This document shows positions 401-18,218 of a stretch of 37,614 nucleotides of DNA, in pieces. Position 1 is the first letter of the stretch. Each line of letters opens with the position of its first letter. The DNA comes from Thermoplasmatota archaeon (lineage in GTDB: Archaea; Thermoplasmatota; Penumbrarchaeia; Penumbrarchaeales; Penumbrarchaeaceae). A program made the translations under genes and the position numbers. The DNA lies in NCBI GenBank assembly GCA_965234725.1, contig CBDDUX010000069.1:1-37614 (forward strand). The letters run 5' to 3'. The notes below the pieces were generated by a model that saw only the letters and a list, made by a program, of their open reading frames with translations, was not told the DNA's origin and did not search any database.

Positions 401-526
401 ATGAGCGAAAACGTGAACATAGAAAGGATATCGATATATCCAGGGGACAACACCCCGGAAAAGAGTAAAAAACTCGCTGATTTCCTTGCAAAGGCAGGCA
501 TCAGATACACATACGAAGCCTATTGA
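401..526 (+). CDS. 41-aa microprotein resembling the N-terminal part of a glutaredoxin fold, no cysteines
   Basis: Hand translation MSENVNIERISIYPGDNTPEKSKKLADFLAKAGIRYTYEAY*. TATA-like aaagattgatat ~30 nt upstream suggests a leaderless mRNA. Followed by the hairpin at 542-569. Below the ORF-track cutoff. Confidence 0.5.
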   Translation: MSENVNIERISIYPGDNTPEKSKKLADFLAKAGIRYTYEAY

Positions 527-541
527 TCAATTCTCAGATCA

Positions 542-569
542 ATAATAGGAACCGGCCGGGTCCTATTAT
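542..569. terminator. Hairpin between convergent small transcription units
   Basis: ataatagga...tcctattat 9-bp inverted repeat around a GC-rich core. Confidence 0.45.
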
Positions 570-663
570 CAGGAATTCCGACCGGACCTCTCCCAAAGAC
601 CAAAATGGCCAATTCTCCCTGCCATGGCCTCGATATTCGATGCAAAGTGAAACGTTGTTCCAC

Positions 664-798
664 TTAGCATCTGGGCCACCTGCAGGGATACATGTTGTTC
701 AGCCTGAACCAGAACAGTGCAGGCACAGACCTTCGAGCTTTCTCTTCCCAATCATATAGGGATGAGAACATGTCAATTGTATCCAAACTTGGGGTCAT
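664..798 (-). CDS. 44-aa micro-ORF (or 5' part of a frameshifted gene continuing into the 569..751 frame)
   Basis: Perfect SD GGAGGTGA (806-813, minus) 7 nt before the ATG at 798. Translation MTPSLDTIDMFSSLYDWEEKARRSVPALFWFRLNNMYPCRWPRC*. Confidence 0.35.
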   Translation of the reverse strand: MTPSLDTIDMFSSLYDWEEKARRSVPALFWFRLNNMYPCRWPRC

Positions 799-1132
799 TT
801 TCTTTTCACCTCCGTTCTTTTTTCAGAAGATGAAGCGATCCCAGCTTGGCAGGGAGCCGTTATCTAAATATACTTCGTATTCCCTTTCAATATTGGGATC
901 AAAGGTCCGTGTCCCTCCCTTCTTTTGTCAGTTCGGCGGGGATATGGACCTCCCCTTCTTCATCTCTATTATTTCTATGGGTGTTTACTATATTAATGGT
1001 TGTGAAAAAAAACCGGGTTCCCAACATGTTATATATATAACTTTCTATGATTTCACTTCTTCAATATTCTTTCCCCTGAGTTATCATGTTCCATTTCATC
1101 TGTTAGGGTTGTTCCTCTAATTCATCTATGTA

Positions 1133-1145
1133 CCTTTAAATAATC
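1133..1145 (+). promoter_or_regulatory. TATA box of first wHTH-TPR gene (leaderless)
   Basis: cctttaaataatc ~30 nt upstream of ATG 1171. An equivalent ttttaaatatt sits ~30 nt upstream of the paralog ATG 2667. Confidence 0.5.
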
Positions 1146-1170
1146 TTCAATTCATTGTATATTGAAGGTA

Positions 1171-2556
1171 ATGCGGATATCAAGAGATGAATTGGTACTT
1201 CTAGGCTTGGACAGGTTGATCCTTAGAAGAGATAGAATGAAACCCTATACTAAGGATGACATCTCGAACGCTCTGGACATATCCGAAAAGACCTTGAATG
1301 AATATTTAACAAAATTGAAAAAAGCAGGTTTGATAGAGAGGAAACAGAAGAAGTTCATCAAGGATCTTGACACGATAATTAAGATCACACCATTAGGTAA
1401 AGAAAGAGTGAAATTGATATGGGAGACAATAGATAGAATGGTACTGACCCCTGAACATCACAATATTCCAACCTGTATCAAGATTAATGTAATCCTGGAA
1501 AGGTTCAGAGACCCTCTGGAAATGCTTTTCTTTCTCTCTCTTTATTCTTCCATGAACGATTTCGACCTTATCATGTTCCTGGATGCATTGAAGATATCCA
1601 AGACCGATCACAATATTGTAAATATATTCTCTGAAATGGAAATCGATGAAGGTGAGGCAGCAAAGGTACCCTTTATTATCACTTTTTCAAAGAGTTCATT
1701 CCATGGAGAATTCGACAGAACAAAACTCGAAGACCCATCCATGGGAAGGGATGTGAATGTTCTTCTGATCATTGCAGAATCACATCAGAAACAGGGAAGG
1801 TTGTCAGAAGCTGTCTCTCTATACGATCACATCCTGTCATCCGGCAACAAGATAACCCAGAACCAATGGTTCATCGCAAGGATGGGGTTGGTCCAGACCA
1901 AAAGGAAGACGGGGGACTTTCAGACGGCTTTTAAACTATTGGAAGAAACAATGGAGATGACAGCCAACAAGACCTTCCTTGCCTATTCAAGACAGTTGAT
2001 GGCATTGATGTATTCCATCATGGGCAACTTCGATGATTCCATGAAACTCTATAATTCATCCATAAGGTCCTTCCATTCCTCCGGCCTTCCCCTCATGCTT
2101 TCGATTGCCTACAATAACAGAGGAACCCTTCATTACAGGAAAGGCGACTATCTTAATGCGGAGGAAGACTGGAAGAAGGCCAGAAAATATGCGAAAGAGG
2201 CAAAGTCAGAATACTGTGAAGCGGCAACAATTACTAATCTGGCCGAACTGAGAGCGAGGGATGGGAATTTTGACATTGCAGTAAAATATCTCCGCAGAGC
2301 CTACAACATTAACAGAACAACTGGAGATTTTGAGAATATGGCCGGAGTGGAATTCAACCTTTCATTAATATACGCAATGAAGAAGGACGAAAGTTCTGCC
2401 CTTGCATATTACCAAAGATCCATGCAAACTGCATATCCACTCCCCTCTCCACCTGAAAAGGAGGAGTGGAAACGTACGCTCATTAAATACTCAAAGGAAT
2501 TCAATTGTCCATTGAATGAGAGATCGTTGGAACTCATCCATTCCTCATGTTTCTGA
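1171..2556 (+). CDS. Winged-HTH (MarR-like) + TPR-repeat protein, putative transcription regulator, paralog 1
   Basis: N-terminal YTKDDISNALDISEKTLNEYLTKLKKAGLIER...KITPLGK (wHTH), C-terminal TPRs (AYNNRGTLHYRKGDYLNAEEDWKKA). Start set to MRISRDEL by alignment with paralog 2. Confidence 0.85.
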   Translation: MRISRDELVLLGLDRLILRRDRMKPYTKDDISNALDISEKTLNEYLTKLKKAGLIERKQKKFIKDLDTIIKITPLGKERVKLIWETIDRMVLTPEHHNIPTCIKINVILERFRDPLEMLFFLSLYSSMNDFDLIMFLDALKISKTDHNIVNIFSEMEIDEGEAAKVPFIITFSKSSFHGEFDRTKLEDPSMGRDVNVLLIIAESHQKQGRLSEAVSLYDHILSSGNKITQNQWFIARMGLVQTKRKTGDFQTAFKLLEETMEMTANKTFLAYSRQLMALMYSIMGNFDDSMKLYNSSIRSFHSSGLPLMLSIAYNNRGTLHYRKGDYLNAEEDWKKARKYAKEAKSEYCEAATITNLAELRARDGNFDIAVKYLRRAYNINRTTGDFENMAGVEFNLSLIYAMKKDESSALAYYQRSMQTAYPLPSPPEKEEWKRTLIKYSKEFNCPLNERSLELIHSSCF

Positions 2557-2666
2557 AATCTACATCATAAGTGAAAATATTCCTAATCATAATATTAGGA
2601 CGGCAATATTTCGAATTATTTTATGATAATTTTAAATATTTAATTGTTAATAAATATAAGAGGGAA

Positions 2667-4031
2667 ATGCGGATCTCTAGAGAAGAGTTGGTCCTATTTG
2701 GATTGGATAAACTGATCAATCACAGAGGAAATAGAGACCCCTATACCAGGGAGGACCTGGCAAATTCACTTGACATTTCTGAAAAGACACTGAATGAATA
2801 TTTGACCAAAATCTCTAATGCTGACCTGATAGAAAGACATCAGAGAAAATTCATCAAGGAATTGGATGTAATATTCAAGATAACTGAAGAAGGGAAAAAA
2901 AGAGTGGAAATGATACGGGAATCCATAGATAGGATGGTCCTCACACCCGAGCATCACAATATCCCCTCATGTATCCTGGTTAGAACCATTCTCGAAAGGT
3001 TCCAGGACCCGTTGGAGATGTTGTTCTTCCTTTCCCTGTATGCATCGAAGAAGGATTTCGATCTTATCATGTTCCTTGACACTCTGAAGATATCACGGGC
3101 GGATTCCAATATCGTGAACATATTTTCAGATATGGAACTGGATGAGGGGGAAGCATCCAGGATACCATTCATTATCACATTTTCCAAGACCTCGTTCCAT
3201 GGTGATTTCGAAAAAGAGATCCTGAAAAGGGATGGATGGTCGGAAAGGGATGTGAGTGCTCTTCTTATTATAGCGGAATCAGAACAGAAGCAAGGTAAGT
3301 TGAACGATGCACTCACACTCTATAATTACATACTTTCTGGAAAGATCAAGATCACACAGAACCAGTGGTTCATAGCAAGGATGGGATTGGTCCATACTTA
3401 CAGGAAGATGGGAGATTTTGAAAAAGCATTGGGGATACTTGATGAAACGGAGACGAATACGGACAACAAGACTTTCCTGGCTTTCTCAAAACAGGTAAGA
3501 GCTCTAATCCTGATGTTGCAAGGCGAATATGATGAAGCCATGAGGCTCTTCAATTTCGCCATCAGGTCATTCAAGACATTCGGACTTCCCCTGATGCTTG
3601 CAATATGTTACAACAATAGAGGTACATTGTACTATAGGATGGATGATTTTGAAAATGCGGGTGAAGATTGGAAAAAAGGAAGAAGATGTGCCACAGAGGC
3701 AAAATCCGAATACTGTGAAGGGGCGATCATAGGTAACCTGGCGGATATATATGCAAGACAGGGGAAATTCGATCTCGCTTTGAAATATCTCAAGAGAGGG
3801 GAGAAGATATCCGAAAAGATAAGTGATCTGGAAATGCTCAGCACCCATTATTTCAATTTCTCATTAGTGTATTTGATGATGAAGGAACTGAAAAAAGCTT
3901 TGGACCTATACAAAAGATCCCTTGAGATCGCTTATCCACTTCCGTCACCATTAGAAAAGGAGGAAAGAAAGAGGTTTATCATTGAATGTGGATTGAAAAA
4001 TGGATTTGACGCAATAGAAAATATGATATAA
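2667..4031 (+). CDS. Winged-HTH + TPR-repeat protein, paralog 2
   Basis: Aligns full length with 1171..2556 (shared TPEHHNIP, ITQNQWFIARMGLV, AYPLPSP). ATG 2667 gives MRISREEL; the ORF-track extension from 2571 is AT-rich promoter sequence. Confidence 0.85.
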   Translation: MRISREELVLFGLDKLINHRGNRDPYTREDLANSLDISEKTLNEYLTKISNADLIERHQRKFIKELDVIFKITEEGKKRVEMIRESIDRMVLTPEHHNIPSCILVRTILERFQDPLEMLFFLSLYASKKDFDLIMFLDTLKISRADSNIVNIFSDMELDEGEASRIPFIITFSKTSFHGDFEKEILKRDGWSERDVSALLIIAESEQKQGKLNDALTLYNYILSGKIKITQNQWFIARMGLVHTYRKMGDFEKALGILDETETNTDNKTFLAFSKQVRALILMLQGEYDEAMRLFNFAIRSFKTFGLPLMLAICYNNRGTLYYRMDDFENAGEDWKKGRRCATEAKSEYCEGAIIGNLADIYARQGKFDLALKYLKRGEKISEKISDLEMLSTHYFNFSLVYLMMKELKKALDLYKRSLEIAYPLPSPLEKEERKRFIIECGLKNGFDAIENMI

Positions 4032-4094
4032 TTGTATTACTAATACTCTACTAGATTGATATTGTTCAATCTAGTTCTCATAGGAGATGTACAT

Positions 4095-4718
4095 ATGGTA
4101 GTGAAGAGAGCGATAATAATTAGGACTAATAATTGCGGCAATGAAGGTATCCAACAAGGACAGCTTGCGAAAATTGGAAGTGTTCTTTCCGAACCTCCTG
4201 ATGGATTGGAGAAACATGGTTGGGAACTTGAGATGTTAGATGGGGATGGTGCAACAAAAGCTATTTTTCTAGAGAAATTAGATTGGGCGTTAGAGATCCT
4301 TCCTGAGGTTCAGCATGTTTTCATATATATTTGTGACACTGGACAATTGTACCAAGGAAAGAACCAATTAACATTCCCAGATGGTAATTATCCATACGAT
4401 GGAGCAGGATCTCTTGATGAAAGATTGTTTAATTTTACTAACCAGAAAGGCGGCCTTTGTGGAAAGATCACTATTGTTGTTGGTGGATGGGAATCAAATT
4501 TCGCAACAGAAAATTTTGCACAACTTTCGCCTTTACCCCCCGATGACCATGTTTACTCCTCAAGATCCCATGGTGAAAATGTTCAAGAAAACATGCTTTA
4601 TGGGGATGCACTTGAAAATCCAAATAATAATGATTTCCTTTCTGCCATTTACGAGGTTAGATTAGCACTTCAAGGCACTCAAACTGTGGTAATAAAGATT
4701 AATGGAACCTATTTATAA
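4095..4718 (+). CDS. Caspase/legumain-like (clan CD fold) protein with catalytic His and Cys substituted
   Basis: SD aggag before ATG 4095. KRAIII / LDGDGATKAIFLEKLDW / VFIYICDTG (cf. xFxYxxxHG) / ITIVVGGWES (cf. xxxxDACxS) occur in caspase-fold order and spacing. Confidence 0.6.
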   Translation: MVVKRAIIIRTNNCGNEGIQQGQLAKIGSVLSEPPDGLEKHGWELEMLDGDGATKAIFLEKLDWALEILPEVQHVFIYICDTGQLYQGKNQLTFPDGNYPYDGAGSLDERLFNFTNQKGGLCGKITIVVGGWESNFATENFAQLSPLPPDDHVYSSRSHGENVQENMLYGDALENPNNNDFLSAIYEVRLALQGTQTVVIKINGTYL

Positions 4719-4755
4719 AGGAAAAAATTGAAATTTGAATTAATATTCATATTTA

Positions 4756-5001
4756 CTATTTTTTCATAGCTCCAATTTCAATTAGATAATTATAATCTAT
4801 TTGATGTTCATCAGTTTTTATTTCAATGTTATTACACCTAACAGAAGTAGATCTTGGTGATGGTCTTAACAATTTCGTTATATCATTTCTTAATGGACTT
4901 TTTTGACCTTTAATTAACACATCAGAGAATTTTAGAAAATTATTGTTGTTTTCTCTCATTTTCTCCACAATCATATTGTTTAGTTCTTCGTTATCATTCA
5001 T
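4756..5001 (-). CDS. Small hypothetical protein (81 aa)
   Basis: SD aaggagg 5-6 nt before the ATG; open frame in very AT-rich DNA; convergent on 4095..4718. Confidence 0.55.
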   Translation of the reverse strand: MNDNEELNNMIVEKMRENNNNFLKFSDVLIKGQKSPLRNDITKLLRPSPRSTSVRCNNIEIKTDEHQIDYNYLIEIGAMKK

Positions 5002-5306
5002 CCAATGCCTCCTTCAATTAAAATTCGAATAGGTATTGGTTTATTAATATTTAATCTCTTTTCAATTTGGTATTTCTTTTTTGATATACTTGTATTAAAA
5101 GGACATATGAGAAATATTGACGACTTTTCCCAAATTAATTTACTGAAAATGATTATCACTTAAACCATTGATTGATGATTTGGATAATTGTTGGAAATTC
5201 AGGAAGGTAAATTCTCATTAAGATCGATCCACTCAAACAGATTATCATAAAATAAGAAACCTTTTATCATTACGGGTCTCTATTGTACCCTATTGGGTGA
5301 TATGCT

Positions 5307-8300
5307 TTGATCAGGACCTTTGCAGCTCTCATGCTGTGTTTGATTATTCTTCAGATCGATCCTTTCCATGTTCCGGCAGAGGACATGGAGGACCTATCGG
5401 GAGATATGATCGGGATAGACCCGATCTATGAAAGGAGAACTCTTACCGCAGGACTCATGGGAACCAGATCGCTCATTGAGAACATGGGGCAGATCGATGA
5501 CGATGATGTCAAGTTCTATTATCCGGGAGATCCCCAGGTCCTCATTCGTTCAGATGGTATTCACGTCAGTTCGGTTACTGAAAATGGAATGATAGGGTAT
5601 TCAATGGAACTGGAGGGGGGGAATTCAGGTGGAAGGATACTGACAGGAGATGAAGGTACAACTTTCAATTTTATCATGGGAAGCGACCCATCAGAATGGG
5701 TCCTCGGGGCAAGGTCATTCAATGAGATAACAGTAGAACAGCTCCGCCCTGGAATGGACCTCAGGGTCCTTGTATCCGAAGAAGGTCCGAAATGGGAGAT
5801 AGAACTTGAAAAAGGGGCTTTGATAGATGATCTCACTCTTGTATATTCGGGGGATTTCCAAAGTTCATGGGTGAAGGACCGGACCATCATGATCGAAAAG
5901 GGAACCACCTCACTTAGGGACGGGCCAGTAATCATATTTCAGAACGGATCCCCCATAGACTGCGAGTTGTCCATGAAAGATGGTCATCTGAGGTTCAATG
6001 TTCCCGATTATGATCCTAAAATGCCCATGATAATCGACCCTCTAATGTCCTCATCGACCCTGATAGGAGGCAATCAGTGGGATATCAGGGCCAAGGTCAA
6101 AGCACATCCTACCGGTGACATAATAGTTGCAGGTTCCGTCGAATCCACAAATATGAAAACCCATAGCACAGCATATGACAGGTCTCAGAACGGAGAGGAT
6201 GATCTGTTCGTTTGCAGACTATCGGCCGATCTTTCAATGATGAGATACGGAACCTACATCGGGGGAACGAAAAGTGACGTGGTCCATGACCTCACGATCG
6301 ACGATGACGGATATGTCTATCTGGTTGGCCAGACTTCTTCAACTGACTTCCCAAGGACGACCGGAGCTCTCATTAATTCATTTCAGGGCGGGGGTTCCGA
6401 TGGTTTCATCGTAAAGGTCTCCCCCGACCTGGGATCGCTCAACTTCTCCACATATTTCGGAGGATCTGGCAAGGATTGGGCAAGCGGCATAGAAGTAGAT
6501 AGTACGGGTATCCCATTTGTATGCGGGTCATCCCAATCCACGGACCTTCCCTCCACATCAGGTTGCTATCAGTCTGAGATGACAGGGATCAGAAATGGAT
6601 TCGTTGCCAAGGTCCATTCCAATGGTAAAGGACTCCATTATCTGACTTACCTCGGGGGGAGTGGATTCGGGGACGATATCGGGGATATCCAGATCGATTC
6701 CGGTGGAAAAGCACTTGTTGTCGGATATTCCAGGTCCAGTGATTTTCCAACCACTTCCGGAGTATTCAAGACCGGAAGTGGCAACTATATGGGATTCGTC
6801 TCAAGATTATCCATAGATGGATCGGACCTTGATATGTCCACATTCCTTGCATATGGAACCAGAATAAATGGAACTGCCATAGATGATCAGGGGAATATTT
6901 TCCTGACCGGAAGAACAGAGACCATCAGTGGTGAATTCCCCGTATCCAGCGATGCCTTTGACAAGGACCTCTCCGGTGATGTGGACGGCTTCATCACCAA
7001 GATGGACAGCTTAGGTGAGAATGTCTTGAAATCCACATATATTGGAGCAAATGAACTATATGGTCAACCACCGGATGTTCAGACAGACTATATCGAGTCC
7101 TGTACTGATATCACACTTGATGATGAGGGAAACGTTCTGGTCACCGGCATGACGGATTCCATCAACTTTCCTTTGACCCTGGATGCTTTTGATAAGACCC
7201 GGAATAACCTTGATGCTTACCTTCTGTATATTGACCCTGACCTTACAACACTACTTTTCTCAACCTTTATCGGAGGATATGATGAGGATAAAGGTTTCGG
7301 GGTTGCAGTGGACAATGATGGCTACATGTATGTCTCCGGGCACACCTATTCGGATCAGACGAACCATGATTTTCCTACAACGGTAGGGGCATTCCAGGAG
7401 GTACATGCTTCTCAATATGACTGGTTCTGCATGAGGTTCAAGATGGATTCATTCTTACCAGGTCCCCCTGAGAATCTGACATCTGTTGCGAACAGCACCA
7501 GTGTCCATCTCAATTGGGAACCGCCTCTATTCGATGGAAATGAAGAGATTATCGACTATCACATCTACTGGGGTCTGTCTCCGGTTACACCAAATTTCCT
7601 GACCAAGACAAGCGATCTGATGTTTGATCATGATGGTCTCACAAAAGGCAAGACCTATTATTACGAGGTGAAGGCAAACAATTCAGTAGGGAAAGGTATC
7701 GGAGCGAAGACGTCAGCAACACCACTTTCGGCTCCGATCTCCCCAAGGATCAACAAGGTTTCACCCGGGGATTCCCATGTGAACATCTCCTGGTCCCCTC
7801 CATGGGACATGGGTGGAACACCTGAGGTCACATACGAAATGCTATATGGAGAGGATCCGAACGACCTTGAAAACCATGTTATTGATATCCTAAAAACCTA
7901 TCACTATGTTTCAGGACTTATCAATGGAAATACCTACTATTTTCAGATCTTCGCCAGGAATATAATAGGTATCAGTGAAGGATCGGATGTTATAAACGCA
8001 ACACCTCTGGGATTACCAAGTACGCCGTTGAACTTCATAACAACAGCAATGGATAAAAGCGTCCTCCTTGAATGGGAGGAACCACTAGACCTCGGAGGCT
8101 CTCCAAATGTTACTTACAACATCTACAGATTTTCTGATGAGACCTTTTCATGGTCGATCCAATCCGGATGGAATGACACGTCCTTCAGGATCACAGGACT
8201 ACTGAACGGCAAGAGTTACACATATTATATTACGGCCAAGAACCCACTGGGAGAAAGTGAGAGAACCGACCTCAGGACAGTGATCCCGCTTGGACCTATT

Positions 8301-9566
8301 TCTGAACCTTTCCATTTGAAGGGAGAGGAATACGGAACATGGGTAAGCCTTTCCTGGACCAGACCCAATTCCACTGGTGGGAAGGAGAATATAACATATT
8401 CTGTCCTCATGGGAGATGACCCTTATGAAATCGAACCGATCGTCAATGGTATCACTTCCACGAATCAGACAGTACTGGATCTGGTCCCGGGAAGGACCTA
8501 TTACTTCTCGGTCAAAGCATTCAATGGGATATTCACCAGCTCCGGATCCAATATCATTTCATTAAGACCCCTGGAACTACCTACTAAACCATTGGACTTG
8601 GAATTTGAAAGAGGGGACTCCTTCATCAACCTTACTTGGAAGGAGCCTGAATACCTTGGTGGAGACACCTCTGTCCGTTATTCCATCCATATGGGAGACT
8701 CGATAACTGAACTCCTGTCTGCAGGGAGATCGAACATACCTCAATTCAATCTCACAGGCCTCGAGAACGGCAGGAACTATTTCGTGTCCGTTAGGGCAGG
8801 CAATTCGAAGGGGGAGGGTCCTTTCTCGAATATCATAAACTCCACTCCGATGAAGATCCCATCTGAACCAAGGAACTTTATCTATAAGGACGATGACAGG
8901 AAACTGGAGATCTCCTGGGATTCACCCTTCGACCATGGAGGATCCGAATGGGTGGTTTACAACCTCTATTTAGGAGACGATCAGGATGAAATGATCTTGA
9001 TCGCAGCGGATCTGACAACAAGGGAATATACTCTTGAAGGACTGGTCAACGGAAGGTTGTATTACATTGGTATAACGGCTGTCAACCCAATGGGTGAATC
9101 TGAGATGGCCGGTCCTTACGAGGCGGTTCCCATGACCACTCCTGGATCCCCTCGAATAACCAATATCACTGTCACAAACGAGGGGCTCATGATCAACTGG
9201 GAAGCCCCTATGGACAATGGCGGATCCGGTGTCTGGTATTACCACATCAAAAGGACAGATGATTCCGGGAAGACCTCTACTTTCAGTATTGGAGGCCATG
9301 TACTTCAATACCTTGACATCGAGGTATTAAAAGGAAAGGAATATAGCTATACCATAACCGCAGAGACATCATATGGTAAAGGAGAACCCAGTGATCCTAT
9401 GGAGGCATTATATCCGGAGGATGAAGTGGAGGAAGGATTCTCTGTGGAACCAATGATGATGATAGCTGCTGCAGCTGCCGTTCTTATCATCTTGATCCTT
9501 CTTGGTATCTTCGCCTTTACAAGGTCTAGAAAAAGGAGAAGGGAAAGAAAAATGTGGGAAGAATGA
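5307..9566 (+). CDS. Membrane-anchored surface protein: signal peptide, SBBP beta-propeller repeats, 7 fibronectin type III repeats, C-terminal TM helix
   Basis: Hydrophobic N-terminus; repeated STYxGGxxxD...YxxGxTxSxDFPTT units; seven PxxPxN...W..P...Y...L.NG..Y...V.A.N..G repeats; TM segment followed by RSRKRRRERK. Confidence 0.9.
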   Translation: MIRTFAALMLCLIILQIDPFHVPAEDMEDLSGDMIGIDPIYERRTLTAGLMGTRSLIENMGQIDDDDVKFYYPGDPQVLIRSDGIHVSSVTENGMIGYSMELEGGNSGGRILTGDEGTTFNFIMGSDPSEWVLGARSFNEITVEQLRPGMDLRVLVSEEGPKWEIELEKGALIDDLTLVYSGDFQSSWVKDRTIMIEKGTTSLRDGPVIIFQNGSPIDCELSMKDGHLRFNVPDYDPKMPMIIDPLMSSSTLIGGNQWDIRAKVKAHPTGDIIVAGSVESTNMKTHSTAYDRSQNGEDDLFVCRLSADLSMMRYGTYIGGTKSDVVHDLTIDDDGYVYLVGQTSSTDFPRTTGALINSFQGGGSDGFIVKVSPDLGSLNFSTYFGGSGKDWASGIEVDSTGIPFVCGSSQSTDLPSTSGCYQSEMTGIRNGFVAKVHSNGKGLHYLTYLGGSGFGDDIGDIQIDSGGKALVVGYSRSSDFPTTSGVFKTGSGNYMGFVSRLSIDGSDLDMSTFLAYGTRINGTAIDDQGNIFLTGRTETISGEFPVSSDAFDKDLSGDVDGFITKMDSLGENVLKSTYIGANELYGQPPDVQTDYIESCTDITLDDEGNVLVTGMTDSINFPLTLDAFDKTRNNLDAYLLYIDPDLTTLLFSTFIGGYDEDKGFGVAVDNDGYMYVSGHTYSDQTNHDFPTTVGAFQEVHASQYDWFCMRFKMDSFLPGPPENLTSVANSTSVHLNWEPPLFDGNEEIIDYHIYWGLSPVTPNFLTKTSDLMFDHDGLTKGKTYYYEVKANNSVGKGIGAKTSATPLSAPISPRINKVSPGDSHVNISWSPPWDMGGTPEVTYEMLYGEDPNDLENHVIDILKTYHYVSGLINGNTYYFQIFARNIIGISEGSDVINATPLGLPSTPLNFITTAMDKSVLLEWEEPLDLGGSPNVTYNIYRFSDETFSWSIQSGWNDTSFRITGLLNGKSYTYYITAKNPLGESERTDLRTVIPLGPISEPFHLKGEEYGTWVSLSWTRPNSTGGKENITYSVLMGDDPYEIEPIVNGITSTNQTVLDLVPGRTYYFSVKAFNGIFTSSGSNIISLRPLELPTKPLDLEFERGDSFINLTWKEPEYLGGDTSVRYSIHMGDSITELLSAGRSNIPQFNLTGLENGRNYFVSVRAGNSKGEGPFSNIINSTPMKIPSEPRNFIYKDDDRKLEISWDSPFDHGGSEWVVYNLYLGDDQDEMILIAADLTTREYTLEGLVNGRLYYIGITAVNPMGESEMAGPYEAVPMTTPGSPRITNITVTNEGLMINWEAPMDNGGSGVWYYHIKRTDDSGKTSTFSIGGHVLQYLDIEVLKGKEYSYTITAETSYGKGEPSDPMEALYPEDEVEEGFSVEPMMMIAAAAAVLIILILLGIFAFTRSRKRRRERKMWEE

Positions 9567-9883: not shown

Positions 9884-11236
9884 TTATAGCCTGGTACCTT
9901 CCGGAGCTTCCATTATAGTGCCTGATCCCATCTTCAAGCGAGTTTCATCCCTTGCCCTGCGAATTATCGAATATGCCGATTCCAGCAGTTCACTCTCGGA
10001 CCTTGAGACCCTAGCGATACCTTCCTTCACAGCCTGAGATCCAACTGCTGCTGCTTCTCTCGGGAAAACCTCCCATTCTTCCATGTTGGGAATTATGTAA
10101 TCCGGTGTGAGGCCCTTGTCCTCTGCCACCTTTGCAAGTTCCCTGGCTGCAGCAATGCACATGGAATCGGTGATAGTCCTTGCCCGAACATCCAGAGCAC
10201 CCCGGAATATTCCGGGGAATCCGAGAGAGTTGTTGATCTGATTGGGGAAATCCGACCTTCCGGTTGCAACTATGTACGCACCTGCTTCCTTGGCATCCCA
10301 GGGCCAGATCTCAGGTTCGGGGTTAGCAGCAGCGAACACTATGGCTTTATCGGCCATGTCCCTGATCATTTCCTTTGTTATGGTCCCGGGAATAGGTCTG
10401 GAGGCTCCAAGGATCGCATCTGATCCTTTGGTACATGATTCCAAGGTACATTCCCGCGAAGCTCCGGAATACCCGATACAAGCTCTGTATTTTTCCGGAT
10501 TCTTGTTCTTCAATCCCTCAAGGTCCTCTCTTTCCTCGCTCAGGACACCTTTGGAATCGCACATGATGATGTTTTTTGGCCTGACCCCTATCTGAGTGAG
10601 GATGTCAGCTATCCTGAGATTAGCAGCCCCTGCACCTATCATGGTGACCTGCATATCATCCGGGCTCTTTCCAACGAGTTTGGCAGCATTGATGAAACCT
10701 GCGACCTCCACGGTGGCAGTTCCCTGTTGATCATCATGCCAAACAGGAATGTTCATCTCCTTTCTGAGTCTGTCAAGGATCACGAAACATTCAGGTGTCC
10801 TTATATCCTCCAGGTTCACGCCACCTAGAGAAGGTTCAAGGGCCTTCACAGTGCGGATCATCTCCTCCACATCTGTAGTTGAAAGACAGAGGGGAAAAGC
10901 ATCCACGCCTCCCAGGTATTTGAAGAGAAGTGCTTTCCCCTCCATCACGGGCATGGCCGCTTCTGGGCCGATATCTCCAAGCCCAAGGACCCTTGTCCCA
11001 TCAGATATCACAGCTATCGTATTGCCCCTGTTCGTATAGTCCCATACCTTGCTAGTATCGTCATGGATCTCCCTGCAAGGTTGGGCAACCCCCGGAGTAT
11101 ACCAGATGGCAAAATCTTTGAAATCCCTTACAGGTGCCTTGAGGGATACCTCTATCTTACCCCTGTAGAATTGATGCATCACCGGAGCTATCTTACCAGG
11201 AAGCCTGGCCTTTTCTATCCTTTCATCATCTGTCAT
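9884..11236 (-). CDS. mae: NAD(P)-dependent malic enzyme
   Basis: YTPGVA, SDGTRVLGLGDIGP, VMEGKALLFK, NLEDI, HDDQQGTA, GAGAA, ANPEPEI, ATGRSDFPNQINN motifs. Confidence 0.95.
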   Translation of the reverse strand: MTDDERIEKARLPGKIAPVMHQFYRGKIEVSLKAPVRDFKDFAIWYTPGVAQPCREIHDDTSKVWDYTNRGNTIAVISDGTRVLGLGDIGPEAAMPVMEGKALLFKYLGGVDAFPLCLSTTDVEEMIRTVKALEPSLGGVNLEDIRTPECFVILDRLRKEMNIPVWHDDQQGTATVEVAGFINAAKLVGKSPDDMQVTMIGAGAANLRIADILTQIGVRPKNIIMCDSKGVLSEEREDLEGLKNKNPEKYRACIGYSGASRECTLESCTKGSDAILGASRPIPGTITKEMIRDMADKAIVFAAANPEPEIWPWDAKEAGAYIVATGRSDFPNQINNSLGFPGIFRGALDVRARTITDSMCIAAARELAKVAEDKGLTPDYIIPNMEEWEVFPREAAAVGSQAVKEGIARVSRSESELLESAYSIIRRARDETRLKMGSGTIMEAPEGTRL

Positions 11237-12842: not shown

Positions 12843-13978
12843 TTTTACTGATCTATATGACCCTCAGGAGCTGGAGGGAGTGCTTCTGCATCATTTTCTG
12901 GCCCGGAAGAACCTGGAAGAGCTGGTCCAGATGTAGCGGCAATATTCCCCGCAAAAGTCGGAGCAAGGTCCACTATCTTCTGGAGCAATGTCTTGGGTTT
13001 GCGGCCCATCCTCTTACCATGAAGGTCCTCACGCCACTGATGCATGTTCTTCTCGATACGAATATTGAGGATGAACAATGCGATTATCACAATGGCAGAT
13101 ACAAGGGCCACAGCTATGAAGATCAGGGCCCAGGAATCCATCAAAGCAGTATTGTCGGTCATCTCAGGATGGCTGTCCCCATCGAAGATATCGGTATTTG
13201 CCTCAACCTCCTCTGCATTGGAGAAACCGTCCTCATCGAAGTCCATGGTCCCATCAAGTGGATTGAAAGGATCAAGCTGGAGGATCAATTCCATTTCATT
13301 GGTTATACCATCAAGGTCAGAATCCTCGTTCATCACCTCAAAAGGCTTGAAAACCACCTTGGAATAGGATTTCCCATCATAGGCACGGATCGACAGATTG
13401 TGATTTTCATTGGTCAGTGTCCTGGTATTGATAACAGCCTTCCAGGTTTCTCCAGTCACTGCTGCTTTCCTCCAGAGACCACCATCAATACGGTATTCAA
13501 CGAAATCCACAAATCCAGAATCATCGGATACCGTACCTTCGACCTCCACACGGTCCTTCAGTTCACCTGTCATGAGACTGGTGATCTGAACAAGGGGCGG
13601 AGGTGTCAGTGAACCGGATCCGATAACACTCTCGATGGTTATAGTGAACTCAAGGACCTCGGAATAGTCCCTCCCGTCATAGGCACGGACGAACACATCA
13701 TAATCACCCCTGCTCATATCTCGGATATCAAGCAGATACTGCCAGACATAGGCACCTTCCGCGACTTCCCAGTCATCCTCGTAGAGGAAACCATCCTTCT
13801 CAACGATACCGACCTCAACCCATCTGAGGGATTTCTCAATATCATTGGCAGAACCTCGTATATAGAACATATCATCGATGATACGCCCGTCGAACAGATT
13901 GTTCACAACAACTTTGGGAGCATCATTGATGGAACGGATACCAACTGTGAATGTGGAGTAAGATGTGTCCATCCCATC
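12843..13978. repeat. 1136-bp exact direct repeat, copy 1
   Basis: Matches 17083-18218 (offset 4240): identical translations on both strands, and base identity wherever compared directly. Confidence 0.95.
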
Positions 13979-16810
13979 GGTTGCAGCAATCGTTACTGTA
14001 ACTACACCATTGAAGTCCATATCAGGGTTCACATGGAGGTAGTTTCCATTATCAAGATACACCTTCACTTTTGATGAGGAGGGCATGAATGAAACGGATA
14101 GGTCCTCGGACCCGCTATCGGTGTCCAGGAGATATTCTTCTATGAAATCGACATTTCCAGTGTATGTCGAATCCTCATCAAGGACGATATCCGGTATCAG
14201 GGATATACCCGGAGCATCGTTCACTGGTGATATCATGATGGGTATCGTATGGTAGGTCTGACCATAGAGATCATAGGGATCGTCAGAGGTGAATACTCGT
14301 AGGTAGTACATTCCTTCATTGTAGTTATAATCGGAGTTTGACCCGACAACAATGATGAAATTATCGGGATCGTCCGTATATTCCGGAGGAAGGACCGTCA
14401 ATGTGATGTCTCCTGCTGCACGATAGATCTTGAATCCCTCATCATTGGAAATGTCCAGATAAGCCTCTTTCATATCCTTATCAAGTAGCTGGAAACTGAG
14501 GTGAATGTCCTGATCCTCGATATCCGAGAAGTAGGGTTCACCGTCACCGGAGATAAGCATTGAGATCTTTCCGGTTGCAATGGCCCTTCCAGTAGGAGCG
14601 GAATACTCTATCAGGATCGGATCTATACCTTCATCACCCGAGATCACAGGAAGGTCCATAGTGGCAAATGGAAGATCGTTTACGGGTAGGACAGTGATAA
14701 AGAAGGGGTCAGAAAATACATCTTTTCCTCCATTGTCCCTTGCTCCGATAACAACCTTGACATCACCGTTCCAGTTCTGGTCCTTGCTTGTGTCTATACC
14801 TAGATATACCGGCCCGCCAGGTACCTCAGCTTCGGTGATGAACAGGTCCAGATGTTTTGATTGGGAATTGGTCTTCACCCAGTAATCGAGGGTTGCCGGT
14901 TCCTGATCAACATCATCGAAGTATTGGGATATCTCGACCCAGTTCCTGTTCACAATACCCTCCGGTACCGATGGAACTATTATTTCCGTCACCGACGGTC
15001 CGTAGTTTGGCCTATCGCCGAGGAGCCTGAGGTTGTCTAACTTAATGATCCCATCCGTATTGGATGTTACATTTATGCGTATTAGGGACCATCCGTCCTC
15101 ATTGGTTGAGACAACTGAATTAAGTTCATTCAGGATAGAACCAGTGGTGGGGTTGAAGTTGACTCTGGCAGTGTAGTCATAGTTGACCTTGATATTGCTG
15201 ACAACTATCTTTCCAGCACTTGCAGCCATGAACTCTATAGGGACGTATGTGAACTCGTTACCAAAGAGGTCGACCTCGTCCGGAAGATGGTTCCTAAGAT
15301 AGGTGTTTATTGCATTTGTATAAGCGGGTGTTCCACCAATACTCTTCTTTCCAACAAGAGCACCGCTCTGGGAATATTCAGCGTTATCGTCAGCTCCTAC
15401 ATCAATGGAGAGGCCTGTGGATTCAAGGTCATAACCAATCACAAGTTTCGGCCAGTATTGTGCATAAGAGGTCGAAGAATAGAGAGGATTATAATTATAA
15501 CCTGAATACGAAAAATAAAAACAATTCTTTGACCATGCTTGTGAAGAGATCATATCATCGTTGTAATAAGTATAAGCTTCCTCGAAATGTGGTTCGTCTG
15601 AAAACTCTGTCTTGTATCTTGATAGCATTATACCATTATTATCCAGAGAACCTGTCACCCATTCCTCATAAAGATCTTTTAGATCATATGAAACATCATA
15701 AAGATCCTCATATGAAGTTGAATAAAACTGTTCATCCATGTGGTATGTGTCCTCTGGCTCAGTTCTATTTCCTGGAAGGTAATCATCATGCCAATCGTAG
15801 AAATGATCCATGTACTGATCTAATAGGGTGTTATCATAATCATAGTTAGTTGACTGATAACTATATTCGGTTGGATGATCATCCAATACTGCAAAAGCAC
15901 CCCAATCTTGATCTATGGAAAAATAGTTGGATGGAGGATTGCTTTCCCATTCGAATCCGTATGAACTGGAATAATGATACCTTCTCACAGGATAATTGAG
16001 TTCATATTGTAAGATGGTTGCTCCAGGTGGAACTTCAAAATCCGGATGATCGAGTTTCCATGCAAGGTAACCTCTGTTTACTGTATATGCAATATATCTA
16101 TCATATGATGTTGATTTGTAAGGATAACCGACATAAACATTATTCATGAAATTTGAACTAGTATACTCCATATATGATTTCGGATAATAATAACCGTACC
16201 CATACCAGTCATCAGTCCCAGTATAATAATCGTAGTTATACATGAGGCTATAGGCCCTTGCAACTTCTATGGTGTTATCAGCGGTGAACATGGATTCCTG
16301 GTATGTTGGAAGAAGAGGATGTGCGATATCAAACTCGACGTTGTTAACGATAGCTCTGCTAGGGAGCTTGATAAAGGTGTCTACTCCATCTGGTGGAGGA
16401 AATACCTCAAGGGTGGTCCCTTGTTTCATCCTGTTGTCGAACATGATGGACTGATTTCCCCATTGACCGACACCGGGTCCGGAGAACCTGTACTCGTCCC
16501 TTCCGTTGTTACCAAGGTCTATGGCAACGTTCGAAGGGTAGACACCGTTCAAAGGTTCTACGGTCACATCGAATTTAAGACCGTCATACGTCGCATTGTT
16601 GTACACGAATATGTTGGCCTCGTTGTTGTATTTTTTTGTACCATGGCTGGTGATTTCCAGGGATGGATCGGTAATGTTAAAGTAACTCTCCATATCCCCA
16701 ATTGTGAACTCCTCAGAATCGATGATCTTGTTCTGGAGGGAAATCACACCATTGAAAAGAGCCGTTCCGGCCAGTAGAATGACCAGACCAATTATCAGGA
16801 ACCTCTTCAT
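12845..16810 (-). CDS. Large membrane-anchored surface protein copy 1 (Tyr-rich DNRLRE-like insert, cadherin/Ig-like repeats, Ca-binding DxDxDG repeats, TM, cytoplasmic tail)
   Basis: Signal peptide MKRFLIIGLV with SD aaggtga; NRGYLAW...DNNGIML...PKLVIGY domain; VNDxP repeats; DSDLDGITNEME/DFDEDGFSNAEE; TM WALIFIAVALVSAIVIIALFIL. Confidence 0.9.
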   Translation of the reverse strand: MKRFLIIGLVILLAGTALFNGVISLQNKIIDSEEFTIGDMESYFNITDPSLEITSHGTKKYNNEANIFVYNNATYDGLKFDVTVEPLNGVYPSNVAIDLGNNGRDEYRFSGPGVGQWGNQSIMFDNRMKQGTTLEVFPPPDGVDTFIKLPSRAIVNNVEFDIAHPLLPTYQESMFTADNTIEVARAYSLMYNYDYYTGTDDWYGYGYYYPKSYMEYTSSNFMNNVYVGYPYKSTSYDRYIAYTVNRGYLAWKLDHPDFEVPPGATILQYELNYPVRRYHYSSSYGFEWESNPPSNYFSIDQDWGAFAVLDDHPTEYSYQSTNYDYDNTLLDQYMDHFYDWHDDYLPGNRTEPEDTYHMDEQFYSTSYEDLYDVSYDLKDLYEEWVTGSLDNNGIMLSRYKTEFSDEPHFEEAYTYYNDDMISSQAWSKNCFYFSYSGYNYNPLYSSTSYAQYWPKLVIGYDLESTGLSIDVGADDNAEYSQSGALVGKKSIGGTPAYTNAINTYLRNHLPDEVDLFGNEFTYVPIEFMAASAGKIVVSNIKVNYDYTARVNFNPTTGSILNELNSVVSTNEDGWSLIRINVTSNTDGIIKLDNLRLLGDRPNYGPSVTEIIVPSVPEGIVNRNWVEISQYFDDVDQEPATLDYWVKTNSQSKHLDLFITEAEVPGGPVYLGIDTSKDQNWNGDVKVVIGARDNGGKDVFSDPFFITVLPVNDLPFATMDLPVISGDEGIDPILIEYSAPTGRAIATGKISMLISGDGEPYFSDIEDQDIHLSFQLLDKDMKEAYLDISNDEGFKIYRAAGDITLTVLPPEYTDDPDNFIIVVGSNSDYNYNEGMYYLRVFTSDDPYDLYGQTYHTIPIMISPVNDAPGISLIPDIVLDEDSTYTGNVDFIEEYLLDTDSGSEDLSVSFMPSSSKVKVYLDNGNYLHVNPDMDFNGVVTVTIAATDGMDTSYSTFTVGIRSINDAPKVVVNNLFDGRIIDDMFYIRGSANDIEKSLRWVEVGIVEKDGFLYEDDWEVAEGAYVWQYLLDIRDMSRGDYDVFVRAYDGRDYSEVLEFTITIESVIGSGSLTPPPLVQITSLMTGELKDRVEVEGTVSDDSGFVDFVEYRIDGGLWRKAAVTGETWKAVINTRTLTNENHNLSIRAYDGKSYSKVVFKPFEVMNEDSDLDGITNEMELILQLDPFNPLDGTMDFDEDGFSNAEEVEANTDIFDGDSHPEMTDNTALMDSWALIFIAVALVSAIVIIALFILNIRIEKNMHQWREDLHGKRMGRKPKTLLQKIVDLAPTFAGNIAATSGPALPGSSGPENDAEALPPAPEGHIDQ

Positions 16811-17032
16811 TTTTGTCACCTTGATCATGTTGAGAGCAGGTCAATTTCTTTAAATCCAACTGTTAACATTCAAAAAGGATTTAAAAAGATTTATATGTCT
16901 GTTTCCATGCTATAAAAAGGTTCCTAAAAAGAATGGAAATAAACTTCATATCTCATGTACCTTCTGGTCTTAACAATATGATGGGACCCATATGCCGAGG
17001 ATCTTCACAAGCGAGCGTTCGGATAGATAGAG

Positions 17033-17082: not shown

Positions 17083-18218
17083 TTTTACTGATCTATATGA
17101 CCCTCAGGAGCTGGAGGGAGTGCTTCTGCATCATTTTCTGGCCCGGAAGAACCTGGAAGAGCTGGTCCAGATGTAGCGGCAATATTCCCCGCAAAAGTCG
17201 GAGCAAGGTCCACTATCTTCTGGAGCAATGTCTTGGGTTTGCGGCCCATCCTCTTACCATGAAGGTCCTCACGCCACTGATGCATGTTCTTCTCGATACG
17301 AATATTGAGGATGAACAATGCGATTATCACAATGGCAGATACAAGGGCCACAGCTATGAAGATCAGGGCCCAGGAATCCATCAAAGCAGTATTGTCGGTC
17401 ATCTCAGGATGGCTGTCCCCATCGAAGATATCGGTATTTGCCTCAACCTCCTCTGCATTGGAGAAACCGTCCTCATCGAAGTCCATGGTCCCATCAAGTG
17501 GATTGAAAGGATCAAGCTGGAGGATCAATTCCATTTCATTGGTTATACCATCAAGGTCAGAATCCTCGTTCATCACCTCAAAAGGCTTGAAAACCACCTT
17601 GGAATAGGATTTCCCATCATAGGCACGGATCGACAGATTGTGATTTTCATTGGTCAGTGTCCTGGTATTGATAACAGCCTTCCAGGTTTCTCCAGTCACT
17701 GCTGCTTTCCTCCAGAGACCACCATCAATACGGTATTCAACGAAATCCACAAATCCAGAATCATCGGATACCGTACCTTCGACCTCCACACGGTCCTTCA
17801 GTTCACCTGTCATGAGACTGGTGATCTGAACAAGGGGCGGAGGTGTCAGTGAACCGGATCCGATAACACTCTCGATGGTTATAGTGAACTCAAGGACCTC
17901 GGAATAGTCCCTCCCGTCATAGGCACGGACGAACACATCATAATCACCCCTGCTCATATCTCGGATATCAAGCAGATACTGCCAGACATAGGCACCTTCC
18001 GCGACTTCCCAGTCATCCTCGTAGAGGAAACCATCCTTCTCAACGATACCGACCTCAACCCATCTGAGGGATTTCTCAATATCATTGGCAGAACCTCGTA
18101 TATAGAACATATCATCGATGATACGCCCGTCGAACAGATTGTTCACAACAACTTTGGGAGCATCATTGATGGAACGGATACCAACTGTGAATGTGGAGTA
18201 AGATGTGTCCATCCCATC
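17083..18218. repeat. 1136-bp exact direct repeat, copy 2
   Basis: Matches 12843-13978. Confidence 0.95.

Follow-up and report, generated by a model that had tools for sequence, protein, structure and literature searches.

What is encoded between positions 401 and 5001 of contig C69, where two paralogous regulators, a caspase-like protein, and several very small open reading frames (ORFs) lie side by side? The window, i.e., the whole stretch of DNA analyzed here, comprises the first 37.6 kb of this contig and belongs to a 3.5 Mb archaeal genome (114 contigs; 97.65% complete), for which Thermoplasmatota is the public label on the relatives of its proteins. Judged by comparison with related loci, this locus is one copy of a lineage-specific module of three genes, encoding a regulator with a winged helix-turn-helix (wHTH) and tetratricopeptide repeats (TPR), a legumain-like pseudo-protease (the "pseudo-legumain" or partner), and a peptide of 44 amino acids (aa); the regulator gene is tandemly duplicated. 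The genomes compared are all metagenome-type assemblies in which short contigs are numerous; G-numbers designate genomes and L-numbers designate loci.

The two regulators and the sequences that precede their start codons are as follows:

1134-1141, plus strand: TTTAAATA, a TATA-like box 37 nt ahead of the regulator 1 ATG (read from the sequence; the stretch 1127-1178 is nearly identical in G004)

1171-2556, plus strand: regulator 1, 461 aa, with a winged HTH (residues ~1-95), a helical linker, and a TPR domain (~195-440) (Pfam)

2631-2638, plus strand: TTTAAATA, a TATA-like box 36 nt ahead of the regulator 2 ATG (read from the sequence)

2667-4031, plus strand: regulator 2, 454 aa, tandem paralog of regulator 1 (Pfam, BLASTP)

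The two proteins are identical at 277 of 440 residues (63%; BLASTP E 0.0), and both present strong matches to TPR_12 in Pfam (E 1e-23 and 7e-23). The winged HTH of regulator 1 scores just above the Pfam cut-offs for HTH_Crp_2 (27.9 bits; cut-off 27) and HTH_5 (24.1 bits; cut-off 22), while the N-terminal winged HTH of regulator 2 remains below both. The best HTH matches were all to winged-helix families, including HTH_Crp_2, HTH_5, HTH_34, TrmB, and MarR in Pfam and Lrs14/Sta1-type families in NCBIfam. An earlier interpretation made from the letters and ORFs alone (hereafter, the sequence-only reading) had described two full-length wHTH-TPR paralogs with a winged-helix rather than an XRE-type DNA-binding domain, and these matches bear out both statements. 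It had also given each regulator gene a leaderless promoter of its own; a TATA-like box is indeed present 36-37 nt before each ATG, a spacing that would fit leaderless or near-leaderless transcripts for both genes.

Beyond these domains, the regulators resemble known families weakly. NCBIfam returned generic TPR and wHTH matches only, far under the cut-offs; the wHTH is weakly similar to that of Csa3/CasR (NCBIfam, PADLOC), and weak matches to TPR_MalT (Pfam) and AfsR (NCBIfam) were observed. Among TPR proteins in the PDB, NprR was matched at an E value of ~1e-4 over 76 residues, a weaker match than those to LGN/Pins and to designed TPR proteins; RNPP_C in Pfam matched regulator 2 only (E 0.0011), at 18.9 bits as compared to a cut-off of 26.5. 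As a lead only, an Atlas model of a 43%-identical relative had AAA_16/NB-ARC/BTAD-TPR proteins as its nearest structures (TM 0.48-0.64). The TPR sensor arms of STAND regulators (MalT, AfsR/SARP) are thus among the closest known systems; however, the proteins described here consist of ~460 aa (wHTH, linker, and TPR) and lack the nucleoside triphosphatase (NTPase) domain (NACHT/NB-ARC/AAA_16) of that class, as no NTPase family was found in either regulator with Pfam or NCBIfam. Relatives of the regulators (E up to 1e-20) were present in 22 of the 23 other genomes of the family, with up to nine per genome, and in none of the 17 searched genomes that represent other families within the same order, class, or phylum.

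The gene that follows regulator 2 encodes the partner:

4095-4718, plus strand: legumain/caspase-fold pseudo-protease, 207 aa, without an N-terminal hydrophobic segment; GGAG is found 8 nt before the ATG (AlphaFold2 model, fold searches)

No match to this protein was found in Pfam, NCBIfam, or PADLOC, and a word-index search of 5.8 billion proteins retrieved only the protein itself. A full phmmer scan matched two giant repeat proteins (one cadherin-like, with 14 stretches, and one with DUF7933), but in pairwise comparison the shared part is a short motif, FPDGxYxYD, which the positional relatives do not conserve; these matches were rejected as repeat-inflated chance. Those relatives were exposed by synteny: a gene with 22-28% identity is located directly 3′ of the regulator in G003 and G001, which represent two further species of the same genus. 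A profile built from the three sequences (window, G003, and G001) yielded matches in 18 of 24 family genomes, at 57 places, nine of them in the genome of the window.

AlphaFold2 gave an unusable model of the 207-aa protein from its single sequence (predicted local distance difference test score, pLDDT, of 34), but a model with a pLDDT of 71 and a predicted template modelling score (pTM) of 0.72 from a 46-sequence alignment, which is dominated by paralogs of a probably exported type described below. In Foldseek, the PDB structures closest to this model were caspase-9, -6, -8, and -7, together with MALT1 (probability 1.00; E values starting at 5e-5). An independent VIA search against representatives placed the asparaginyl ligase OaAEP1 first (Z 14.3, root mean square deviation (rmsd) 3.0, 184 residues aligned), followed by legumain (4aw9; Z 14.2, rmsd 3.1, 182 aligned) and metacaspase-4 (Z 14.2), with alignments that span 182-188 residues. 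Lower ranks were held by SAVED-CHAT (13.5), Dronc (13.2), glycosylphosphatidylinositol (GPI) transamidase (13.1), Raptor (11.9), c-FLIP (10.8), a CRISPR-associated caspase regulator complex (7.4), and separase (7.1); the first folds outside clan CD appeared at Z ~8-9. When the family profile was compared with PDB sequences, legumains were again the best matches, at a non-significant E value of 0.24, with both active-site motifs in register: IYIsDH aligned on DHG and ilnGerSG on IEACESG.

The positions of the catalytic His and Cys are occupied by Thr82 and Trp132 in the 207-aa protein. Across the 46 aligned sequences, Cys is found at the nucleophile position in none (Glu in 21, Asn in 16, Lys in four, Asp in two, and Trp, Leu, and His in one each), while the catalytic His is retained in 34. 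The residues framing these two positions (Y78, D81, G131, and S134) do not vary among the 46 sequences, and the old active-site region is the best-conserved part of the family. On the modelled fold, the 207-aa protein is a legumain-like pseudo-protease, and the "pseudo-caspase" of the sequence-only reading has held up in both respects, the caspase fold and the replaced His/Cys dyad. Compared with the true members of family C13 (legumain/asparaginyl endopeptidase and GPI8, clan CD), which share its fold and the register of both motifs, the partner differs in having no significant sequence match, no Peptidase_C13 match in a Pfam scan of twelve family members, and a replaced Cys in all 46 sequences (mostly Glu or Asn; Trp in the window) in addition to the His-to-Thr change in the window. 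A genome paper on Thermoprofundales lists legumain (C13) among putative peptidase genes, which may or may not belong to the present family (PMC6461988). The partner also resembles pseudo-caspases and pseudo-orthocaspases (c-FLIP, the caspase-like domain of Raptor, and bacterial Tyr/Ser orthocaspases), dyad-less clan CD folds that are thought to bind rather than cleave, but it is legumain-like and not of the C14 type. In the available part of a survey of C14 homologs, pseudo-variants were reported only in Bacteria, and all 93 archaeal sequences examined there keep the His-Cys dyad (PMC6426788).

The linkage of regulators to caspase-fold genes, for which the sequence-only reading had suggested a search, holds across the whole archaeal family: 37 of the 57 partner matches have one of the 82 listed regulator matches directly upstream on the same strand (65-595 nt between matched spans), and 36 of these 82 have a partner match downstream. 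These counts represent lower bounds since many unpaired cases lie at contig ends or under thresholds, and the related genomes do not constitute independent samples. The pair seems to be limited to one family of uncultured Thermoplasmatota.

Two types of module can be distinguished by the N-terminus of the partner. The eight other partner genes in the genome of the window encode proteins of 230-249 aa that have a hydrophobic N-terminal segment and carry several N-x-S/T sequons, some of which are conserved. An N-terminal hydrophobic segment is present in 37 of the 46 aligned partners, and these carry mostly 3-7 sequons, as compared to 1-2 in the subgroup of the window; hydropathy and sequons, the two features from which export is read here, suggest that these partners are probably exported or anchored with their domain outside the cell. 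A maximum likelihood tree of 32 regulators (one frame per place, midpoint rooting; duplicate loci, the frameshifted second copy of G004, and an 834-aa weak match were left out) placed all 16 regulators whose partner has no hydrophobic N-terminus, together with two unclassified ones, in a single group (clade A; support 93/97), nested among regulators of partners that do carry such an N-terminus. The partners of clade A, found at 11 distinct places in six genera, have no hydrophobic N-terminus and a hydropathy maximum of ≤1.85, while partners at 12 other places have a maximum of ≥2.37. Within the clade-A part of the tree, regulator 1 groups with copy 1 of G004 (91% identity to this ortholog) and regulator 2 groups with the G003 copy, which places the duplication seen in the window within the genus; the G004 counterpart of regulator 2 is split across two frames. 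The loss of the hydrophobic N-terminus and the presence of a linked peptide in this clade suggest a new intracellular relationship.

In six of the eight paralogous modules in the genome of the window (on C60, C50, C111, C57, C7, and C95; loci L048, L049, and L051-L054), the partner is followed by a third gene encoding a protein of ~460-500 aa (458-525) with a hydrophobic N-terminus. The one such protein scanned matched no Pfam family; it presents repeated W..W/D...IY motifs and a faint match to beta-propeller repeats, a hint of a beta-propeller. No significant similarity was found between this third gene and the 1419-aa neighbor of the module in the window. One of these loci (L053, G000:C7) also contains two near-identical genes for exported-type pseudo-legumains 6 kb apart (3986-4678 and 10380-11078); only the first has a regulator directly upstream, and the second is located between genes encoding a 1320-aa fn3 protein and a beta-helix/NosD-like protein.

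The third member of the module in the window is a very small gene on the opposite strand:

664-798, minus strand: conserved micro-ORF, 44 aa, stop codon TAA at 664-666, with a conserved C-terminal tail ending in ...FWFRLNNMYPCRWPRC (codon alignment, profile search)

799-813, minus strand: strong Shine-Dalgarno site of the 44-aa micro-ORF, GGAGGTGA, then 7 nt and the ATG (read from the sequence; the 11-nt block 803-813 is identical in G001)

The region 540-1010 is ~98% identical to G004, as compared to 88% over the whole 1.17 kb upstream of regulator 1. A six-frame comparison with distant loci identified a minus-strand frame ending in ...RWPRC in G001 (57%), G022, G015, G010, G013, and G008. 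The 44-aa micro-ORF is conserved across six of seven genera, and the peptide alignment (A6) includes seven relatives from five genera. In the corresponding codon alignment, Arg is encoded by AGG, AGA, CGC, CGG, or CGT, Pro by CCC, CCA, or CCG, and Cys by TGC or TGT; the stop codon is TAA, TAG, or TGA and is found at the same position in every aligned sequence, and mismatches with G001 number 13, 30, and 12 by codon position. By this codon-level pattern, the micro-ORF is protein-coding. The window and G004 frames are identical over 52 aligned residues, and the "GGEK"-like residues upstream in several relatives correspond to an in-frame translation of the ribosome-binding site.

Peptide length ranges over 21-44 aa, with variable, acidic N-termini and a basic, aromatic tail that follows the consensus W-F/Y-R-L/F-x-N-x-Y-P-C-R-W-P-R-C (in short, ...RLxNxYPCRWPRC). 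All seven aligned peptides share the Pro near the end of the tail (the "penultimate Pro") and the terminal Cys, and the Asn is nearly invariant; variants include Ser for Asn and RYPRC in G010 and a terminal CC in G008 and G013. No hydrophobic stretch was found in any peptide of the alignment, and the Atlas provided no usable match for the 44-aa peptide.

A profile search with the peptide gave 19 matches in 14 of 24 family genomes (1-3 per genome). All eight matches with E <1e-12 are located within 1.5 kb of a clade-A regulator, and 13 of the 19 are within ~2 kb of a clade-A regulator or partner. The genome of the window contains a single copy, with none next to any of the eight other modules. 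In the window, G001, G004, and G022, the peptide gene lies upstream of the regulator in divergent orientation, while in G010, G015, G008, and G013 regulator, partner, and peptide follow each other on one strand; the whole trio is tandemly duplicated in G008 and G013. Because the peptide gene is upstream and divergent in some genomes and downstream of the partner in others, its linkage has survived rearrangement, and these gene orders show that the trio has been inherited together across genera despite it.

How might these three genes work together? The reading that we favor, tentatively and at somewhat less than an even chance, is that regulator, pseudo-legumain, and peptide form an intracellular switch. 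The regulators would bind the promoter regions of the module through their wHTH domain, and their TPR superhelix would be switched by the C-terminal tail of the peptide. The pseudo-legumain, which retains Y78, D81, G131, and S134 around its old cleft, would be a non-cleaving binder that holds or presents this tail. The full cycle would take place inside the cell, with regulator and pseudo-legumain both cytoplasmic, and the output would be transcription of the module itself, perhaps also of the adjacent gene for a giant surface protein. A fuller statement, in which a peptide with an invariant ...WPRC tail controls the wHTH-TPR regulator, a pseudo-legumain recruited from an exported ancestor serves as non-cleaving receptor or chaperone, and the whole represents the first such switch in Archaea, independent of bacterial RRNPP systems, seems doubtful to us when all its parts are taken together.

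Several observations weigh against the proposed switch. The partners are fast-evolving, with 22-33% identity among genus-level positional relatives (28-33% in BLAST pairs within the genus), as compared to 56-63% for their regulators. The G004 counterpart has decayed into a pseudogene that is related to the G003 form (five TGA and two TAA stop codons, and frameshifts), indicating that the partner is dispensable at least in that genome, where regulator and peptide remain intact beside it. Six of the 19 peptide matches have no regulator or partner within 1.5 kb (one of the six is at a contig edge), and the profile search found no peptide in G002, in G003, or in any of the three genus-g4 genomes. 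Moreover, pairing with partners of the probably exported type, which make up the larger, older part of the family, cannot mean that the TPR domain binds the mature partner; it represents, most simply, a regulator with its target operon, and the same could hold in the window.

The main rival explanation builds on this last point. The regulators would be local transcription factors sensing an unrelated ligand, the pseudo-legumain a drifting relic of an exported protein, and the peptide merely syntenic. The older part of the family, in which a partner with a hydrophobic N-terminus and then the ~460-aa protein with a hydrophobic N-terminus are most simply an operon with the regulator, fits this explanation, and so do the decay of the partner in G004 and the low partner identity within the genus. 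It is also favored by the cassette at 4033-5254 (1.2 kb, containing the partner gene and an 81-aa ORF), which has no detectable DNA similarity to G004 despite flanks that are 88-92% identical. However, a drifting relic is difficult to reconcile with partners that lack the hydrophobic N-terminus and are intact at 11 places in six genera with all four cleft residues invariant, and a merely syntenic peptide is difficult to reconcile with a linkage kept through at least one rearrangement and through the independent duplication of the trio in G008/G013. We regard this explanation as a serious contender, even if an unlikely one.

The next rival is a quorum-sensing system like those of the RRNPP family, in which the peptide would leave the cell, be trimmed to its tail, return, and dock on the TPR domain; the two paralogs would then represent two specificities. 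TPR regulators that sense peptides have been described in Firmicutes and in phages of these bacteria. Of the known systems, RRNPP pairs (PlcR-PapR, NprR-NprX, Rgg-SHP, and AimR-AimP) are those that the module would most resemble in operation, as it would combine a cytoplasmic DNA-binding protein, a C-terminal TPR array, and an adjoining short ORF conserved at its extreme C-terminus, and the weak similarity of the regulators to RNPP_C and NprR points in the same direction; some RRNPP peptides (SHP and ComS) likewise have no classical signal peptide. Yet in its regulators the module fails as a member of the RRNPP family: the HTH is winged and not XRE-type, RNPP_C remains below its cut-off, and generic TPR proteins outmatch NprR. 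The peptide carries no hydrophobic stretch that would point to export, though it could leave the cell by a different route. Pfam identified no oligopeptide transporter or export gene in the window, the tail is kept constant across genera rather than diversified into pherotypes, a single peptide gene accompanies the two receptors in the window, and a third, pseudo-protease gene and an archaeal host set the module further apart. We consider this rival improbable. The parallel with RRNPP systems drawn by the sequence-only reading is not supported as receptor homology, while the conserved small peptide gene that such a parallel implied is present. Searches of full-text literature on RRNPP or TPR proteins in archaea and on TPR, winged helix, and small peptides in Thermoplasmatota retrieved no such module and no archaeal peptide-sensing TPR regulator; in the available part of one paper (PMC12700828), "archaea" occurs only in the reference list.

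A conflict or defense system, either with a TPR and caspase-fold sensor as in TPR-CHAT or with a small toxic peptide and its regulators, is less probable still. The cassette is AT-rich and hypervariable, a direct repeat associated with tRNA-Lys is found at the border of the locus, the partner has expanded to nine matches in one genome, and the regulator wHTH is weakly like that of Csa3/CasR, all of which could fit such a role. TPR-CHAT/Csx29 of type III-E CRISPR and separase likewise couple TPR-type repeats genetically to a caspase-fold protein, but here the two are encoded by separate genes, the protease is inactive (dead in all 46 members), and the TPR protein has a DNA-binding domain. PADLOC gave only generic TPR models, wHTH models of the CARF/CasR/Csa3 type, and one weak LmuC match; Pfam found no nuclease, NTPase, or cas gene nearby among the window proteins and no cas or gRAMP gene among 20 further window proteins, and the synteny of regulators and peptide is stable from genus to genus, not patchy. 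The sequence-only reading had allowed for a conflict system, which finds no support in PADLOC, and for gating of a clan CD protease by TPRs, which loses its point with Cys absent from the nucleophile position in all 46 sequences and with the partner probably exported in most paralogous modules; taken as a whole, that reading keeps its dead caspase fold, its family-wide linkage, and its conserved adjacent micro-ORF, and loses RRNPP homology, protease gating, and the conflict role.

Finally, a precursor of a ribosomally synthesized and post-translationally modified peptide (RiPP), with the legumain-fold protein as recognition or cyclization scaffold, is very improbable: the top fold match is a peptide asparaginyl ligase (OaAEP1, Z 14.3), and the Asn of the peptide is nearly invariant and its terminal Cys fully so, but no member has the nucleophile Cys, no modifying enzyme or exporter is conserved beside the trio, and conservation falls on the C-terminal "core" of the peptide, while it is usually the leader that is conserved in RiPP precursors.

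The remaining features in and around the module include small ORFs and inverted repeats:

401-526, plus strand: a second small ORF (41 aa) that converges with the 44-aa ORF (conserved within the genus only)

542-569, no strand assigned: palindromic hairpin with 14-nt arms between the convergent small ORFs (inverted repeat, 93% complementary; -12.7 and -14.0 kcal/mol, z -1.95 and -2.17)

4050-4075, plus strand: perfect 10-bp inverted repeat with a 6-nt loop between the genes for regulator 2 and the pseudo-legumain (-12.4 kcal/mol, z -2.95)

4756-5001, minus strand: 81-aa ORF, unsupported, in the GC-poorest part of the window (its only Pfam match is at chance level)

The 41-aa ORF is 85% identical in G004, with nine synonymous and six non-synonymous changes (counted by eye), and 53% identical over 34 aa in G001, where mismatches are highest at the wobble position (12, 24, and 12 by codon position); on this pattern it looks real. 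No relative was found outside the genus and no paralog in the genome of the window, and there was no Pfam, NCBIfam, or PADLOC match. A 142-aa ORF (692-1120) was rejected as a gene; in G001 this frame is interrupted by stops, and the conservation of the ORF represents an antisense shadow of the 44-aa ORF, as both frames share wobble positions. No relative of the 81-aa ORF was identified in the genome of the window or at any compared locus. The tiny ORFs that the sequence-only reading had noted upstream of the regulators thus reduce to the 41-aa ORF, at genus level, and to the 44-aa micro-ORF, which it had not singled out; the 142-aa ORF is dropped, and the 81-aa downstream orphan finds no support. 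The random contexts and unconserved micro-ORFs that would have refuted that reading were not observed, as the caspase-fold linkage and the 44-aa ORF are conserved, and this outcome speaks in its favor. The hairpin at 542-569 is probably a bidirectional terminator, and the inverted repeat at 4050-4075 could be an attenuator hairpin or an operator. The GC content is 0.34-0.41 across 1-5 kb, with a minimum of 0.335 at 4001-5000, as compared to 0.40-0.53 in the remaining window, and the block was therefore rightly called AT-rich. No tRNA was identified within the window (ARAGORN), and Rfam gave no match at the gathering threshold over the whole window and none at E up to 1 over 1-1250.

Downstream of the module, one gene is shared with related loci:

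5307-9566, plus strand: surface protein, 1419 aa, with DUF7948, SBBP, and five fn3 stretches (Pfam; same position in G003 and G004)

This gene is a possible regulated target and is not among the demonstrated parts of the module. Further downstream, two tandem genes on the minus strand (12845-16828 and 17085-21050) encode giant surface-type proteins of 1327 and 1321 aa, one of which contains a Big_7 domain (Pfam); the two proteins are 83% identical overall and 100% identical over their final ~365 residues, a pattern that suggests a recent event of gene conversion or duplication. Decay is evident at the orthologous locus of G004 (L033, G004:C1, 9366-15860): regulator 2 is split between two frames, the pseudo-legumain gene has seven in-frame stops, and the large gene for the DUF7948/SBBP/fn3 surface protein has been broken up into three ORFs (600, 494, and 155 aa).

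The upstream border also presents some unusual sequences. A tRNA-Lys(CTT) gene is located just upstream of the orthologous locus in G004 (L033 6738-6814); its final ~19 nt (3′ strand of the T-stem, acceptor, and CCA) are repeated directly ~190 nt downstream, at a place corresponding to 186-204 in the window, where the 15-nt core of the repeat occurs once. This repeat looks like an old integration footprint. Homology with G004 begins at position 47 of the window, the start of which is the contig end; the tRNA-Lys gene of the same genome is found on contig C1, ~640 nt from the end of that contig, and the ORFs at that end show no sign of an integrated element. The stretch between the tRNA site and the direct repeat (47-205) is conserved with G004 and contains a perfect 11-bp hairpin (102-136; -14.1 kcal/mol, z -2.45); neither Rfam nor ARAGORN gave a match to it. 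In G001, a 116-aa minus-strand ORF that looks thioredoxin-like by eye lies upstream of the module, beyond the two small ORFs (L013 3833-4183); the corresponding position falls outside the contig of the window, which ends earlier.

The locus is a candidate for two things that we did not find described for Archaea in the parts of the literature available to us, a peptide-sensing TPR regulator and a catalytically dead caspase homolog. If the fuller statement given above is true, the module would represent a three-part signaling device with an origin independent of the bacterial RRNPP systems. It is a compact and testable candidate, built of three small genes with a well-defined peptide motif and a pair of paralogous receptors, and the probably exported and probably cytoplasmic forms of the pseudo-legumain provide a built-in comparison set. 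The expanded pair of regulator and pseudo-legumain, with nine partner matches in this genome, may help to control surface and secreted proteins in these archaea.

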